A DNA stretch of 64,000 nucleotides from Alphaproteobacteria bacterium (GCA_965205265.1 CBDBGH010000003.1:2976001-3040000); one strand, 5' to 3'. Counted from the stretch's first letter, positions 19,421 through 30,439 are shown. The notes: generated by a model not told the origin, from the letters alone. Translations and numbers: made by a program.

Positions 19421-20322
19421 GCCTGCGGCGGCAGGGGTTCACCATCCGCCAATGCACAGTGCTACCAACACCACTACTTTGAGAATGTCATGATATGCTC
19501 AGTCTTCATTCTTCTAAACAAATTTGTTTCCTCCGATCTAAGTAGTGGCATATACCGGCTTCGCTCTGGAATTTCTCGCGTGAAGTGATCTATAATTTTG
19601 AAGCCACTCTGCTCGGCAGATAGCTTCAGCAACTCACTATTCCTCACCTCGTGTCCTTTCACACGAGAATTTCCAACAACATAAGTTGCCTGCCGGTTTG
19701 GTGCCAGTACTCGATGTGCTTCGCGCAGAATCGAGCACAAATCACCATAGTAGCGCCGAAGCATATTCCTCTTTTTCTCCCCTACATCCGGGTGTAAATT
19801 TTCGAAAAACTCCTGCGCTCGTCCATTCACCCGTCGCACCCGAACGATTTCCGCTCCAACAAACCGCGCACGCAGCTTCCTCAATTTGGTGATCGAGTAC
19901 CCAAGCCAGATCAGGGACATTCTGTGCCCCCGCATATAATCTATTGCATTCAAATACGGAGGGGAAGTCACTATTCGATCAACAGAACCTGACCTAACAC
20001 GCCCCATTCTCCGCGCATCGCCTCTATATGCAGACACATCCTTTTGAATTTTCCCGGACGACAACGCCTTTAGCACATGGTCCAACGATCCCGGAAGGGC
20101 GTCAAAGAGATCGAACTCATTCTCAATGATTGTGCGATGTGGACGGCTATGAGCAGTGTCCCTCGCTCGAGAAGCCTTCGGCTCTTTCGTCACAATCAAG
20201 CGGGAGACCGAAACCTTCAGCGCATTCATGACGGGACCACTTGAGAGCATCGGCTCCTGTACCATTACAAATGCCAACTTACGCAACTGTTCCGTAAGCG
20301 ATGCGGGCGGGTCACCCGGATT

Positions 20323-21966
20323 TCAGCTTGACGACGGCTTGAAGTTCCACGGGAGCAGGTCGTCGATGCGGTCGTTGGGATGGCCGACCGCGATGGCTTC
20401 GAGGGTGGCCTTGAGCCAGGCGTAGGGCTCGACCCCGTTCAACCTGGCGGTCTGGGTGAGTGAAGCGATCCGGCCCCAGGCGACCGCGCCTTCGTCGTGA
20501 CCCGCGAAGAGCGCGTTTTTCCTTGTAAGGGCAATCGGCCGGGCGAGGTTCTCGACGGCATTGCTGTCCATCTCGACGCGGCCGTCGGCGAGGAACAGCC
20601 GGAGGCCGTCCCAGTGACGGGCGATATAGGCGAGCTTCTCGCCGAGGCGGGACTTGGGCGAGATGCGGGCGCGCTGCTGCTTCAGCCAGTCGCCGAAGGC
20701 CTCGACCAGGGGCGCGGAGCGCGCGTGTCGTTCTGCGAGACGTTGCTCGGGCGGGCTGCCGCGGATGTCGGCCTCGATGGCGTAGAGCTCGGCGATCCGG
20801 CGCAGGCCCTCTGCCGCGATCTCGGAGCCGCTGCTGTCGTAGATCTCGCGGAGCCGGCGCCTCGCGTGGGACCAGCAGTAAGCCAGCCGTATCGGCGCGC
20901 CGCCCTTGCGGCTCGGTCCAGTCAGCCGGTTGTAGCCGGCATAGCCATCCACCTGGAGGATACCATCGAAGCCGTCGAGGAAGCGCTCGGCATATTCACC
21001 GCCGCGCCCGGGCGCATAGAAGTACACAACGCCCGGCGGGTCGGGTCCGCTCCAGGCACGGTCGTCGCGGGCCAGCGCCCACAGCCAGCCGGTCTTGGTC
21101 CTGCCGCGGCCCGGATCGAGCACCGGCGCCCGCGTCTCGTCCATGAACAGCTTCGAAGAGCGCTTGAGATGCTCCGCCAGCCGGTCGGCCACCGGTTTCA
21201 GATGGAATGACGCCCTGCCGACCCAGCCGGCCAGCGTCGAGCGGTCCAGATCGAGGCCGGAACGGGCATAGACCTGCGCCTGCCGGTGCAACGGGCAATG
21301 GTCCAGGTATTTGGAGACGAGCACATGGGCGATCGCGCCTTCGGTCGGCAACCCGCCCTCGATCAGCCGGGCCGGCGCCGGCGCCTGGGTGACGCCCTGT
21401 TCGCAGGCCCGGCAGGCGTATTTCGGCCGCACCGTGACGATCACCCGAAGCTGCGCCGGCACGATGTCCAGGCGCTCCGTGCGATCCTCGCCAATCTTCA
21501 CCATCTCCCCGCAGCCGCAGGGGCAGAGCGTGCTCTCCGGCTCGACCACCTGCTCGATCCGCTCCAGATGCTCCGGCAAGTGGCCGATATTGCGCGCCGG
21601 GCGAGGACGCTTCGGCGATTGGGCCGGCGTCGGATCTTCCGGCGCGGCCGCTGCTTCGATCTCCGCCGCCGCGCCCTCAAGGTCCTCGAACGCCAGCTGG
21701 CGCTCGTCCGCCGACAGCTTCTCCGACCTCTTGCCATACAGAAGGCGGATCAGTTCGAGGTTCAGATGTTCGAGACGGCGGATGCGCTCCGCCTGAGCCC
21801 CGTTGCGGTCCGTCAGAACTTCGTTCTCGCCCGCGAGACAGGCCTTCTCTTCCGCCAGCGTCTCGTTCTCGGCGCGAAGCACCTCCAGCGCCGCGATTGC
21901 CTGCACCGCCGCTTCCCGCTGTTCGGGCGTCAGCGTTCCGAGGTCGATCTCCGCAAGGGCCGGCAT
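20323..21966 (-). CDS. tnpC: IS66 transposase TnpC (intact)
   Basis: Complete ORF ending LLPWNFKPSSS. Confidence 0.93.
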   Translation of the reverse strand: MPALAEIDLGTLTPEQREAAVQAIAALEVLRAENETLAEEKACLAGENEVLTDRNGAQAERIRRLEHLNLELIRLLYGKRSEKLSADERQLAFEDLEGAAAEIEAAAAPEDPTPAQSPKRPRPARNIGHLPEHLERIEQVVEPESTLCPCGCGEMVKIGEDRTERLDIVPAQLRVIVTVRPKYACRACEQGVTQAPAPARLIEGGLPTEGAIAHVLVSKYLDHCPLHRQAQVYARSGLDLDRSTLAGWVGRASFHLKPVADRLAEHLKRSSKLFMDETRAPVLDPGRGRTKTGWLWALARDDRAWSGPDPPGVVYFYAPGRGGEYAERFLDGFDGILQVDGYAGYNRLTGPSRKGGAPIRLAYCWSHARRRLREIYDSSGSEIAAEGLRRIAELYAIEADIRGSPPEQRLAERHARSAPLVEAFGDWLKQQRARISPKSRLGEKLAYIARHWDGLRLFLADGRVEMDSNAVENLARPIALTRKNALFAGHDEGAVAWGRIASLTQTARLNGVEPYAWLKATLEAIAVGHPNDRIDDLLPWNFKPSSS

Positions 21967-22436
21967 GGCCAGTCTGGTAGCACAGTGTCGGGACGCGGCA
22001 CGCCCCGATCCGCCCAGTGAGTCATTCGGCCTCAGCCGGGCGCCGTGCCGACAGCGCTCGCACACGGCGCCAGTCCAGCCCGGAGAACAGCGCCTCGAAC
22101 TGCGCATGGCTCAGCGACATCACCCCGTCGCGGATCGCCGGCCAGACAAAGCCCTGGTCCTCCAGACGCTTGTAGACCATCACCAGGCCGGTCCCGTCCC
22201 AGTAGATCAGCTTCAGCCTGTCAGCTCGTTTCGTACGGAACGCTGCGGCGCGACAATCAGCTTGAGACGCTGGCGACAATCAGGATGAGACGGGGGAAGG
22301 CGGCGGCCCGGAACGGAGGGAGGGCGTAGCCCGACCGGAGTTCCGGGCCGCCGCCTCAAAAATTTTTCCTGGACCTTCTGGCGGGGTCGGTCGGCTGGGC
22401 GAACGGTGACGTTTTTCCGAGTAGAGGAGCGCGTCA

Positions 22437-28372: not shown

Positions 28373-28573
28373 AATTCTCGGTACGTCTCCCGATGAGCTC
28401 TCGCAAAATTAAATATCCATGGCCCTTTTCTCCTTGACGACATCTTCAACCCTATCGGCGTGACGTTGTTCACTAGATAGCAGCCACTACCGCTCTCTCT
28501 CAATCTCTGTAACGTCACGGGCTCCTCAAAATACTCAAGAAGCAACGCAAAAAATGAACCATGATATCGGGCT
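28373..28573 (+). repeat. 201-bp target-site duplication, right copy
   Basis: Matches 26256-26456. Confidence 0.95.
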
Positions 28574-28583
28574 GTGTCAGCTA

Positions 28584-30439
28584 TCATCGGCGATTTTGGA
28601 CAAATCTCACTGCCCCACCGTTAATCTTGTAGAACAATCGTGCCTTCCCCTTTCCGTTGTGAAATATTTTTAAATGATGGCGCGCATCCGGTATCTCGCT
28701 TCGACGATACTCATTCGTCGCAAAAATTCCCTTTGTCCTACGTATAGTATTCTTCTCGTGGTCAGTGTATCGGCTTGCGGCTGTTCCAAACCCACTCGGT
28801 CTATGAAACGAAACGCGGTGATTTCCATTCGCGATCTCCTGCTCCAGATATCGAACGACGTATGGTGGAAACTCCTCATCGCTGAACCTAGCACGCAACG
28901 CTTTGAGCATATCCACATCGCTTCTACCATTACGTACAAATAACGCCGACAGCTCAGAGTCGCGGTAATCGAATCGCCGAACGACATCTCTCCGCCTTCA
29001 AAATCAACACTTGATCTATCGATTGACCCCGCCGCGGTGGGTGTCGTCTTGTGATCTGCTAGCCACACAGGCGCCCCAGCACCACTTCGTTGAGCCTCAA
29101 GTGCCAGCTTGTGGAAAGCAAAACATTTGCTCCAATTACCCATAAGTGTCTCCGGTATCCAGAGCTGAAAGTGCTCTTTGTAATCCTTCCTTGTGCCAAA
29201 CATGCGCGCCCTCTGAATATAAGTATCTTGCGAAAATTTTCCCTTGACGGTTCGGGTGAAGTACATTGACAATAAATTCTCAAACGTTACACCACGGGAT
29301 ATAATATTTCCACCTACGCCGAACGAAAATAGGCTAGTTGGTGTCGAAATCTCTGCCACTTTACCTGGATTGGGCCTACTGGAGTTGATCTCCACTACAA
29401 CATTACGATTAATGTTACGAAGCACAAACTCTCCCAGCTTGGTCGCATGTGCGGAAGAAAAAAGTCTGGCGGTGTCGTAGAGTCTTCTGCGCAAGGGCTC
29501 AAAGCGTGCCGACGACGGGGTCGAAAGCGTGGCTAAGGTGGATTGGATCAGGTCGACGTCTTCAGCATGCTCATCGCGCTTTCCGCTTGTATGAACAAGC
29601 ATTGTGAAATTTGATGTTTTCCCCAAATGATGAAGATATGCTACCCCACACAGGAAATGGAGTATGGCATTTTGTATTTCTCCTTTCTCATCTCCTTGGT
29701 CCGCGCTGAAGGTATGCAACCTATACTGGCAAACATTATTTTCTGGGAAGAAGAACTCTTGACCAACATATTCTGGATGGGGCGAAAAATCTACCCACTT
29801 CTCGCTATCATTTTGGAAAGTGTTATTTAGGTTTAGCCTCGCCGGTGTAGCCGTGACACCAATATACTTTCCATCGGAGCCCAAAAGTCGGGAGATTAGT
29901 GAATTGATTTTGGTTTTGTCATGATCTGGCCTGTTCACGTTGCCATCTGGCGAAGCATAATCTGCTTCATCATCGATCACAATTAATCCATGTTCCAGAC
30001 GCAAAAATTCTATCAATTTTTCAAGATCTCTTGCGTTCTTCTTACAGAAAATTACCCAACTTCGGCCTTTCAACTGTCTAGGATCGCTTGGTAGATCACT
30101 AAATTGCTTCGGTGATGGATTAAGTCCGGAAAGTCGAAATCGGGACAAATTTTGGCTCAACAAATCTACACTATCAGTCATCAGATTAATAATAATTGGA
30201 TATCCTTCGTCTAGTAATCTTGCATTCAAAGCTATCATCATTTCAGTTTTGCCGCTTTGAGGTTCCCCAAAAATCACAAGGGAACGCGACCCATCCTGAT
30301 GTACGTTCTGGAATGTTGATCGTATAGCTTCTTCTATTGACGTAGTGTCTATACCCTCTTGCTGCAATTGCTCGATTCGTGTTTCGTATTGCTGAGTACC
30401 CGCGTTTCCAACGATTTTTGACCAATCAACAGTGTTCAT
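28584..30439 (-). pseudogene. Z1-domain SF2 helicase/ATPase-like protein (~618 aa), 1-bp frameshift near 28975
   Basis: GEPQSGKT (Walker A), IDDEAD (Walker B), VTATP, MLVHTS, GGNIISRGVT, QRARMFG; 1856 nt = 619 codons minus 1 nt; the C-terminus continues in the 28584-28916 frame. Confidence 0.85.

Follow-up and report, generated by a model that had tools for sequence, protein, structure and literature searches.

The 64,000-nt window (i.e., the whole stretch of DNA analysed) contains on its minus strand a 3.8-kb low-GC island of three coupled genes, H, S and M, all of which are broken, and related cassettes occur intact elsewhere. We propose, at a probability of roughly one in three, that H-S-M is a widespread, unannotated class of ATP-dependent restriction-modification (R-M) system, in which S, a ~150-aa protein with a restriction-endonuclease-like (RE) fold and a non-canonical active site (H, Y, K, H, D, E, R), would be the specificity and nuclease subunit, switched on by a CglI-type DEAD-Z1 translocase (H), with self DNA being marked by an SPPY (possibly m4C) methyltransferase (M). 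The features of the island and its immediate surroundings are as follows:

28584–30439, minus strand: H gene, DEAD-Z1 helicase-like subunit of ~618 aa across one –1 frameshift (Pfam Z1, PADLOC Helicase_II, alignment with six intact homologues)
28973–28975, minus strand: H frameshift site, a 1-nt deletion (one base missing in the DNA alignment with the intact congener locus)
28370–28587, minus strand: 5′ part of the S gene, from the start codon to the insertion sequence (IS), including one copy of a 204-nt target duplication (ATGA overlap with the H stop; direct repeat D1)
26457–28369, minus strand: 1913-bp IS within S, with a DDE_Tnp_1 transposase at 26560–28215 (Pfam PF01609, E 2.4e-14)
26012–26456, minus strand: 3′ part of the S gene, 147 of 152 codons plus the stop (translation P0001; 25 homologues of 150–154 aa; RE-like fold model)
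25650–26010, minus strand: 5′ part of the M gene with motif I DPMTGSG (translation P0003; PADLOC MTase_II, E 1.3e-14)
20294–25649, minus strand: IS66-family element within M, carrying a nested IS21-family element (Pfam DDE_Tnp_IS66, E 5.8e-98; TnpB_IS66; HTH_Tnp_1; IstB_IS21, E 5e-65)
19474–20293, minus strand: 3′ part of the M gene with motif IV TSPPY, to the stop codon (translation P0004; PADLOC MTase_II, E 5.7e-13)
19202–19297, plus strand: end of an inverted second IS66 copy that follows closely downstream of the island (inverted repeats I6, I2, I1 and I3)

The first-pass annotation had described three tightly coupled low-GC genes once the IS DNA is taken out, and this was confirmed by composition, gene overlaps and the joined reading frames. 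GC content is 0.42–0.48 at 19500–19999, 26000–26499 and 28500–30499, vs. 0.65–0.77 in the surroundings (scored per 500 nt). The H stop TGA (28586–28584) and the S start ATG (28587–28585) overlap as ATGA, while the M start ATG at 26010 lies one base past the S stop codon (26014–26012). Read through the breaks, H, S and M measure ~618, 152 and 390 aa, respectively, and IS DNA plus duplications total ~7.5 kb.

The IS within S ends in perfect terminal inverted repeats of 18 nt and lies between the two copies of a perfect direct duplication of 204 nt (26253–26456 = 28370–28573), because of which the 3′ part of S retains almost all codons. Its full-length copies in this genome that are 100% identical number at least 41. 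The element within M carries tnpA (25168–25566), a split tnpB and tnpC (20323–22107), as well as the nested istA (22437–23936) and istB (23933–24772); it is flanked by the 8-bp duplication GGAACAGT (25657–25650 and 20293–20286), across which the joined M reading frame is continuous. The second IS66 copy is itself broken by another IS21 copy (at about 16409–19201), and this second IS66 insertion is not found in the congener locus L011. H, which runs from its ATG at 30439 to its stop at 28584, matches homologues in frame 1 as far as '...EGGEMSFG' and in frame 2 from 'FDYRDSELSALF...' onward. Independent contigs from two runs (X1 and X3), possibly of the same strain as the assembly, agree with the window across this frameshift, and contig X6 of a related strain has an extra A behind 28975. 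An independent knock-out of the H-S-M system is present in a related strain.

Co-occurrence of the trio extends to other genomes. In a congener (genome G010, locus L011), it is intact and syntenic, adjoining the same acetolactate-synthase-like gene; that island is 79–84% identical to the window at the nucleotide level, similar to the flanks, and contains three ORFs and no more, bounded by conserved host genes. The H-S-M order recurs in 6/6 other genome loci from different orders, where neighbouring genes either overlap by 4 nt or are no more than 8 nt apart; the flanks of these loci are mutually unrelated. In a sister subfamily, 74 of 80 metagenome loci have an H homologue immediately upstream of S (50 full and 24 cut by a contig end; of the others, three have no H upstream of S and three are not decidable). 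A homologous methyltransferase gene accompanies 41 of these 80 loci (38 as M-H-S, two as H-S-M and one on the opposite strand), is missing from four in which both flanks reach at least 1300 nt, and cannot be judged in 35 that are too short. Moreover, on a Calothrix plasmid, the gene for a 741-aa Z1 protein is directly preceded by that for an S homologue (29% identity). The distribution is patchy: of 400 further genomes drawn from the phylum none was positive, and of 60 relatives one was.

The window copy is best taken as a decayed, horizontally acquired cassette that is non-functional in this genome. We consider it likely that the cassette was present in the common ancestor with the congener, where it is intact at the same site, and was inactivated later, while IS activity surged; the window shows a probable R-M system that was dismantled by an IS burst. 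The three genes of the earlier designation do form a co-conserved, translationally coupled cassette, but the window copy itself is dead, with all three of its genes disrupted.

H matches Pfam Z1 (PF10593; E 4.3e-22, 79.2 bits vs. a cut-off of 25), as well as ResIII and SWI2_SNF2, and the REBASE-derived PADLOC model Helicase_II (PDLC03202, 'Type II helicase domain protein'; E 1.4e-42, improving to 3.3e-48 when an intact homologue is scored), in support of the Z1-type SF2 motor originally proposed. Both the SF2 DEAD N-core and the Z1 C-core with intact ATPase motifs that define the CglI/NgoAVII H subunits are present: Walker A (GEPQSGKT), Walker B (DDEAD) and the Z1 signature QDTYIQRARMFG can be read in H, and the Walker A/B (DEAD), motif III (TAT), V and VI (QxxR) residues are invariant across 51 H homologues. 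The C-terminal domain was not detected by sequence (the PADLOC match ends at 472–479 of 621, and PDB sequence searches came back empty), and Foldseek gave no match for its model (pLDDT 72.5) at E<=0.001. Among 48,161 chains compared with this model, rank 1 was 6f1s_A, i.e., the C-domain of H.CglI, which is a weak match (Z 5.5, rmsd 3.7, 105 of 146 aligned) and the only chain with Z>=5 (next Z 4.0). Since H matches REBASE-derived Type II helicase proteins and its C-domain best matches that of H.CglI, the closest described kind is CglI/NgoAVII and not Mza.

The first-pass annotation, which put the system forward as a candidate undescribed one after comparison with Mza alone, overlooked this class. 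CglI and NgoAVII are likewise M + R + DEAD-Z1 H systems in which cleavage requires ATP hydrolysis (PMC4267653, PMC5861437), so that the present system is not wholly undescribed. In that class, an R2H2 complex cleaves DNA at specific sites. As in those systems (and BceSIV), there are three genes for a stand-alone methyltransferase, a separate nuclease-type subunit and an H of ~620 aa, with a DEAD N-core, a Z1 C-core (with a DThhQxuRhFG-type motif VI and two conserved His in a helical insert) and a C-terminal domain of ~170 aa (same sources). However, the R subunit described there (PMC4267653, PMC5861437) consists of an N-terminal PLD (HxK) nuclease and a C-terminal B3-like domain, whereas S is a single-domain, 152-aa RE-fold protein; M.CglI and M.NgoAVII are reported as C5 methyltransferases (PMC4267653), whereas M belongs to the N6/N4 family with TSPPY; and the gene order, H-S-M or M-H-S here, is different. 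A PLD-B3 R subunit was ruled out for S, because a single compact domain of 150–155 aa, as seen in 25 close homologues and a confident model, leaves no room for PLD and B3 domains. H-S-M therefore looks, in our judgement quite plausibly, like a variation on CglI/NgoAVII in which a small RE-fold partner replaces the PLD-B3 R and an N6/N4-type methyltransferase replaces the C5 enzyme.

Operons in which a Z1-type SFII helicase goes together with a DNA methylase and a conserved RE-fold protein, and in some cases also with a MORC-type GHKL ATPase, were outlined by Iyer, Abhiman and Aravind in 2008 (PMC2292703); they were later named Mza in PADLOC/NCBIfam. The RE-fold partners described there carry a classical E-D-ExK motif, which S does not have, and the methylases are mostly cytosine-C5, unlike the N6/N4-family M. 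The locus might also be the remnant of a larger, known Z1 system, for instance Mza (MutL-like ATPase, Z1, DUF4420, AIPR and methyltransferase), that lost its other genes. A weak local similarity between H and MzaC (PADLOC E 8.4e-12) and a GHKL-type ATPase gene upstream of H in two sister-subfamily loci (L035 and L042) would fit, but the NCBIfam MzaC match (NF041933) reaches 44.3 bits vs. an equivalog cut-off of 1500 and covers only ~65 residues (383–447), so that H was ruled out as MzaC. Genes for a MutL-like GHKL ATPase, DUF4420 and AIPR are absent from the three-ORF islands of both the window and the congener, as the first-pass annotation had said of the Mza partners; the same trio stands amid unrelated flanks in the six other loci, and S matches no PADLOC model. 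We regard such a remnant as highly improbable.

M is a stand-alone N6/N4-family DNA methyltransferase, judging from the order of its motifs (DPMxGSG of motif I ahead of TSPPY of motif IV). Its N-terminus MIHVHPFPARMAPE matches the start of all intact homologues, and it contains both the AdoMet motif I (FxGxG-like) and the motif IV (D/N/S)PP(Y/F) of PF01555. An intact homologue (with DPMSGSG...TSPPY) scores 36 bits against Pfam N6_N4_Mtase (PF01555; cut-off 26.7), and TSPPY occurs in 45/45 related methyltransferase ORFs that cover the motif IV region. The PF01555 match and TSPPY also ruled out a C5-cytosine methyltransferase. An SPPY motif points to N4-cytosine methylation, and the mark set by M might be m4C; the earlier label 'N4C-type' was right about SPPY, from which alone it was drawn, and overstated as to specificity.

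No Pfam, PADLOC or NCBIfam family matches S, and no public name was found for it, which agrees with its initial description as a small unknown protein. Its model (pLDDT 90.3, pTM 0.86) has an alpha-beta-beta-beta-alpha-beta RE-like topology, i.e., the core fold of the PD-(D/E)xK superfamily. The top Foldseek match was Hjc (E 4.2e-4), and a wide structure comparison returned Hjc (Z 9.7, rmsd 3.2, 115 aligned; only modestly higher than unrelated models attain, according to the tool's own note), I-Ssp6803I (9.1), a RecU-type protein (8.2) and D212 (8.0), followed by PvuII (6.1–6.3), BsaWI (6.0) and NhoI (5.8), the top rows being nearly all RE-fold nucleases. S shares its size (~150 aa) and core fold with PvuII, Hjc, RecU and I-Ssp6803I (small homodimeric Type IIP REases or junction resolvases), but is 7–14% identical to them in structural alignments (i.e., no sequence similarity), does not conserve the position of their catalytic motif, and is obligately linked to an ATPase gene.

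In the numbering of P0001 (full protein: +5), all 89 S sequences taken from the loci have H4, Y32 and K43, and 86–88 of them retain H60, D83, E92, R48 and R111; in a wider family sample, the only polar residues conserved above 90% are K43, R48, D83 and R111. The canonical catalytic pattern was not seen, with neither a conserved Asp/acid opening the expected beta-2 (strand 38–44) nor a (D/E)xK on beta-3 (strand 52–57), and the conserved K43, D83, E92, H4 and H60 stand elsewhere in the chain than the canonical positions. The model thus confidently assigns S to a restriction-endonuclease-like (Hjc/PvuII-like) domain without the textbook D...(D/E)xK spacing. The 'small PD-(D/E)xK-like effector' of the first reading holds for the fold, whereas 'effector nuclease' stays conjectural because the catalytic motif is not recognisable.

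The lack of this motif could also mean that S is an RE-fold protein without catalytic activity that serves H in target recognition, as a sensor or as an adaptor. Any DNA damage would then come from elsewhere (a nuclease of the host, or a domain added in some variants), or DNA would be blocked uncut. We deem this rather unlikely. In one locus, S forms a fusion with an HD domain that is marginal (22.4 bits vs. a cut-off of 22), so that the nuclease may be something other than S by itself, and some H-S pairs adjoin candidate nucleases (PDDEXK_1, Cas4-like, in L020; SNase in L075). Moreover, a highly conserved H stretch ('WLADHKTTPT..SIDKSSVDFEGGEMSF'), predicted to be unstructured in isolation, could be a partner-binding or composite-site loop. 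However, the seven closest loci consist of three genes only, with no further nuclease candidate; the seven residues H4, Y32, K43, H60, D83, E92 and R111 are kept as expected of an active or binding site; and complete REases of the size and fold of S exist, PvuII being among the matches.

The resemblance of S to Holliday-junction resolvases (Hjc/RecU), its best fold matches, together with orphan S homologues in a temperate phage and beside a recombinase, would suit a cassette without a defence role, i.e., a mobile selfish methyltransferase plus a repair/recombination helicase and a resolvase-like protein, or an epigenetic regulator. This seems improbable to us, given that H-S is tightly linked to a DNA methyltransferase in two gene orders, the nearest matches of H are REBASE-derived helicase subunits of restriction systems, the distribution is patchy and the island composition foreign. 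Furthermore, one H-S pair lies between the Dsr1 and PDC-M59A defence genes, and a restriction system that is costly would fit the finding that two related strains have each been knocked out independently.

Under the proposed R-M reading, and by analogy with CglI/NgoAVII, M would methylate host sites, an H-S complex would bind unmethylated sites on incoming DNA, H would hydrolyse ATP to translocate along dsDNA, and S would then cut the DNA; H and S presumably bind each other, with S as the putative nuclease and carrier of sequence specificity. Type I, Type III and Type ISP ATP-dependent restriction enzymes similarly couple an SF2 helicase-like motor to an N6/N4-type methyltransferase and a nuclease of RE fold. 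The present cassette differs from them in that nuclease fold, motor and methyltransferase are divided among three small proteins, a specificity subunit of the HsdS or Mod type is absent, and the motor belongs to the DEAD-Z1 subfamily.

Biochemical knowledge of the DEAD-Z1 motor comes from one enzyme pair, CglI and NgoAVII. Here, the same type of motor is stably paired with another nuclease-fold protein, which is very small, and with another class of methyltransferase. This combination recurs in hundreds of environmental loci, where S and M are labelled just 'hypothetical protein'. If H + S cleaves DNA, the motor would be a portable module able to drive unrelated nucleases, the REase families would gain a new one, and ~560 sequence clusters of unknown proteins would receive an annotation.

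Finally, S occurs without H in three metagenome loci and in a Ralstonia P2-like phage, whose orphan S has lost D83, R48 and R111. If H-S-M is the R-M class proposed here, such phage copies could be decoys that poison the host motor.

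The region from 19.4 to 30.5 kb of the window is a patchwork, in which low-GC pieces (0.42–0.48) alternate with host-like pieces (0.65–0.77). The high-GC pieces are insertion sequences (IS), and the low-GC pieces align into three minus-strand genes, i.e., H (a DEAD-Z1 helicase-like gene), S (a small gene encoding a 152-aa protein with a predicted restriction-endonuclease (RE) fold), and M (a 390-aa TSPPY methyltransferase (MTase) gene), laid out as follows:

30439 (ATG) to 28586–28584 (TGA), minus strand: H, homologous in frame 1 up to "...FEGGEMSFG" and in the +1 frame from "FDYRDSELSALF..."
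28587–28584, minus strand: H/S junction (ATGA), where the H stop overlaps the S start
26457–28369: IS of 1913 bp in S, inserted after 28370, with a transposase matching DDE_Tnp_1
26010 (ATG, one base past the S stop codon) to 19474, minus strand: M, resuming in frame past an IS66-family element
20294–25649: IS66-family element in M, which is cut at 25650, with an 8-bp duplication (GGAACAGT)

DNA alignment with a congener revealed that H is one base short near 28973–28975. The 1913-bp IS has perfect terminal inverted repeats of 18 nt and is surrounded by a perfect direct target duplication of 204 nt of S sequence (26253–26456 being identical to 28370–28573), yielding two overlapping partial S copies. 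Owing to this duplication, 26455–26015 contains an unbroken run of 147 of the 152 S codons. Very long target duplications, as seen for the 1913-bp IS, are a trait of the IS1634 group. Within M, tnpB of the IS66-family element is split in turn by an IS21-family element, and the two M pieces add up to 390 aa (120 + 272 – 2). This reconstruction agrees with the first-pass annotation, which had described three coupled genes of ~618, 152, and 390 aa, overlapping or abutting and interrupted by ~7.5 kb of IS DNA. The H-S-M copy in the window is a relic made up of pseudogenes. The 3′ part of M is furthermore bracketed by two inverted copies of one IS66-family element (15500–19297 and 20294–25649), each of them interrupted at a site of its own by an IS21-family element; the IS21 copies are 87–94% alike, the IS66 parts are 99–100% alike between both elements, and the left copy (15500–19297) is missing from the congener.

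That congener genome (G010, from the same genus) has the trio intact (ORFs 5099–7063, 7060–7518, and 7520–8692 of its locus L011) inside a 3.7-kb low-GC stretch, directly 3′ of the same acetolactate-synthase-like gene as in the window, and the downstream DNA is also shared. Nucleotide identity between the window and G010 amounts to 79–84% over the island and 74–89% over the flanks. Since the island occupies the same site in both genomes at similar identity, it is older than the split of the two species.

The history of the damage was traced by comparing the window with contigs of other sequencing runs. Two runs with the same organism label (contigs X1 and X3), which may be the same strain, were identical to the window over the H frameshift. 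Contig X6, from another sample, is about 2.6% diverged (36 differences over ~1400 positions) and carries an additional A exactly behind 28975, placing H in frame at that site; moreover, its S continues past 28373 without the IS. H of X6 is broken elsewhere, by a different insertion at 29771–29781 (~11-nt overlap), which is an independent knock-out of the same system in a relative. The 1913-bp IS occurs at least 41 times in this genome at full length and with 100% identity, which speaks for a recent IS burst. Taken together with the X6 knock-out, these copies therefore make the island one casualty of a recent IS burst, with the system lost independently in the relative. A further copy of this IS lies at about 52.7–54.6 kb of the window (transposase 52809–54464).

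Scanning the genome collection with an S alignment yielded six loci, from Sedimenticolaceae, Desulfuromonadales, Ruegeria, Cohaesibacteraceae, Erythrobacter, and an unclassified proteobacterium. All six contain H (618–647 aa as called), S (150–155 aa), and M (388–393 aa) in one order, with 4-nt overlaps or gaps of at most 8 nt between the genes and with mutually unrelated flanks. Co-occurrence of the trio elsewhere, which the first-pass annotation had put forward for checking, is thus borne out by these loci and by the intact copy in G010. S itself is otherwise rare: of 60 relatives searched, a single one has it, and a sample of 400 further genomes of the phylum yielded none. When 1.84 billion representatives were searched with a profile, S proved to be part of a larger family of 561 clusters at E ≤ 1e-3 (283 at E ≤ 1e-10), nearly all of them stand-alone proteins of 145–190 aa. 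The family to which the island belongs is conserved and lacks an annotation, and it has a fairly wide distribution among environmental bacteria.

For a sister subfamily (30–45% identical to S), 80 metagenome loci were taken with A5, a sub-alignment of the broad S alignment A3. An H homologue was located immediately 5′ of S in 74 of these (50 full, 24 ended by the contig end) and has the C-terminal domain of H (full homologues, E 1e-181 to 1e-207). Three of the 80 had no DNA upstream of S, and no H homologue was found in another three, apparently one element adjoining a recombinase. An M homologue was present in 41 of the 80 loci (38 as M-H-S, two as H-S-M, and one on the opposite strand) and was not found in four with both flanks of at least 1300 nt, 35 being too short to judge. 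H and S therefore form a conserved core of two genes, to which an MTase of one family is usually linked in either of two orders, as would be expected of restriction and modification genes.

H-S pairs without a TSPPY MTase were observed downstream of a GHKL-type ATPase gene (L035, 2–3116; L042, 2–3083, the latter with a Type I HsdM also downstream) and between the Dsr1 and PDC-M59A defence genes (L022). On a Calothrix plasmid (L001, AP018212.1, 2715–8674), a 29%-identical S homologue is situated directly upstream of a gene for a 741-aa Z1 protein, whose match extends over the whole Helicase_II model (E 5.4e-87). Ahead of this pair lie genes for a DrmD-like SNF2 helicase and for a 346-aa protein of unknown kind, and no MTase was recognised at the locus.

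H matches Pfam Z1 (79 bits vs. a cut-off of 25), with weak ResIII and SWI2_SNF2 matches, as well as the REBASE-derived "Type II helicase domain protein" model of PADLOC (E 1.4e-42; 3.3e-48 for an intact homologue), the latter over positions about 24–479 of 621 only. Among 51 H homologues, Walker A (GEPQSGKT), Walker B (DDEAD), TATP, motif V, the Z1 signature QDTYIQRARMFG, and two His of the helical insert are invariant or nearly so. These motifs have their counterparts in the DEAD-Z1 features of H.CglI (PMC5861437) and in the DThhQXuRhFG motif of Iyer et al. (PMC2292703).

PDB searches with H, by single sequence and by profile, were empty, and its last ~175 residues gave no sequence match in Pfam either. 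A model of this C-terminal domain (from 52 sequences; pLDDT 72.5, good over residues 51–177) was compared with 48,161 chains, of which 6F1S, the C-terminal domain of H.CglI, was the best and the only one with Z ≥ 5. The match is weak (Z 5.5, rmsd 3.7, 105 aligned residues; next best Z 4.0), yet on this model it would be the expected domain at the expected place; the 6F1S domain has been described as a unique fold. A PLD nuclease had been suspected here from the invariant "ARHHLKVFHN" (HxK-like). No Pfam PLD match was obtained at E ≤ 10 with six C-terminal pieces, and the best match of the domain model was the H.CglI C-domain rather than a PLD chain. H is best read as a three-domain H subunit of the CglI type without a nuclease domain. 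In 52 homologues, the stretch "APVWLADHKTTPT..SIDKSSVDFEGGEMSF" around residues 455–490 of H (window about 28975–29080) hardly varies, yet its pLDDT stays under 50 in the model of the isolated domain, making it a candidate partner-binding or DNA-binding loop.

S has no match in Pfam, PADLOC, or NCBIfam, and no Pfam family is common to any two of 55 family members, even at E ≤ 5. Its NCBI label is "hypothetical protein", its sole library match is PHROG 28860 (function unknown), and a PDB sequence search returned one chance-like PPR match only. The S model is confident (pLDDT 90.3, pTM 0.86), and its matches are almost all RE-fold proteins, headed by Hjc (Foldseek E 4.2e-4; VIA structure-comparison Z 9.7) and including I-Ssp6803I (9.1), RecU-type (8.2), D212 (8.0), PvuII (6.1–6.3), BsaWI (6.0), NhoI (5.8), and VRR-NUC (5.5). 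A BFVD fold search gave nothing at E ≤ 0.001, the weaker rows being endonuclease- or resolvase-like. The 30 clusters nearest to S in the ESM Atlas lack Pfam domains and are all labelled "hypothetical protein", and the named neighbours (NmeDI_C, PDDEXK_14/16) reach only 0.76–0.79.

The earlier proposal of a small PD-(D/E)xK-like effector thus holds for the fold, but not for the canonical catalytic pattern: the textbook D...(D/E)xK is not in S, and the strands expected to carry D and (D/E)xK read TPIGLKM and WIFNFA. Among 89 locus S proteins, H4, G5, Y32, K43, W52, C80, and G121 are invariant (numbering of P0001, the 3′ part of S; +5 for the full protein), and S45, R48, P51, F54, H60, D83, G84, E92, R111, and Y117 are kept in 86–88. 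Among polar residues, only K43, R48, D83, and R111 exceed 90% in a more divergent sample. Fold and conserved residues together therefore point to an RE-fold protein with a conserved non-canonical polar constellation, for which, from the model, nuclease activity is plausible but unproven. The departure of both strands from the textbook pattern would suit a non-catalytic recognition or adaptor subunit; set beside the RE fold and the conserved polar residues, we consider such a role for S rather unlikely.

No fused or longer S forms were found among proteins of 274–2000 aa (weak evidence), and four single longer ORFs (P0128, P0178, P0119, and P0075) contain no Pfam domain. One of the 80 metagenome loci (L017, 5001–6086) has a longer S ORF (361 aa), the C-terminal part of which matches an HD domain marginally (22.4 bits vs. 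a cut-off of 22). An orphan S homologue, matching the family profile at E 4e-27, is carried by the P2-like Ralstonia phage YO188_2 (L102, 4995–5432, ON170321.1), with no Z1 gene within 5 kb. It lacks R48, P51, F54, D83, G84, and R111 and, judging from its sequence, might serve as a decoy or use the fold for something unrelated.

Each of the two M pieces falls just under the Pfam N6_N4_Mtase threshold, above which the intact homologue scores (36 bits vs. 26.7), and many PADLOC Type II MTase models match M. Motif I (DPMxGSG, about residue 31) comes before motif IV (TSPPY, about residue 226), ~195 residues apart. Among 48 MTase ORFs drawn from seven close loci and from metagenome loci, TSPPY is present in all 45 that contain the motif IV region, the other three being end fragments. 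The best PDB sequence matches of M are N4-cytosine MTases, over motif I only. An SPPY motif is indicative of N4-cytosine methylation, which is the putative activity of M.

According to PMC4267653 and PMC5861437, the ATP-dependent restriction-modification (R-M) systems CglI and NgoAVII comprise a C5 MTase, R (a PLD nuclease with a B3 DNA-binding domain), and H/N (DEAD-Z1-C), and R2H2 needs extensive ATP hydrolysis and dsDNA translocation for cutting at fixed positions beside GCCGC. The H-S-M cassette follows this logic and uses this type of motor, but R is replaced by the one-domain RE-fold S, and the MTase is of the N6/N4 type instead of C5. The cassette is not Mza, the multi-gene Z1 system (MzaA–E) with which the trio had initially been compared: H aligns with MzaC only locally and below threshold (44 bits vs. 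a cut-off of 1500), and, as already remarked at that stage, no other Mza genes are in the cassette. Given the shared CglI logic and motor and the mismatch with Mza, we therefore read H-S-M, with a probability of roughly 0.6, as a CglI-like ATP-dependent R-M system of new composition. In such a system, M would protect self DNA and H-S would attack unmodified DNA. The earlier interpretation thus stands in outline, although its anchoring shifts from Mza to CglI/NgoAVII. The main uncertainty of this R-M reading is whether S is the nuclease; H-S binding, DNA cleavage, the methylated base, the recognition site, and any anti-phage effect are all what we infer.

The cassette also resembles the third type of operon described by Iyer et al. 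in 2008, in which a Z1 helicase is combined with an RE-fold protein and a methylase, with or without MORC; the RE-fold partners there, unlike S, carry the classical E-D-ExK motif (PMC2292703). Among the papers listed on Z1/DEAD-Z1 restriction and on CglI/NgoAVII since 2018, none describes, by title or abstract, a Z1 helicase with a ~150-aa RE-fold protein and an SPPY MTase. Two resources that may already list such partners are the alignment of H-related ORFs in Supplementary Fig. S5 of PMC5861437 and the survey of 95 fused PLD-ATPase homologues cited in PMC4267653. The H-S-M family is a reasonable target for a restriction-enzyme laboratory.

Finally, elsewhere in the window (48840–52633), there is a 950-aa ORF that contains the NPPF-type MTase motif VIGNPPFLG. 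The ORF after it is low in GC (0.48), encodes 314 aa, and has no assigned function. From sequence, the two may represent a further acquired locus for defence or modification.
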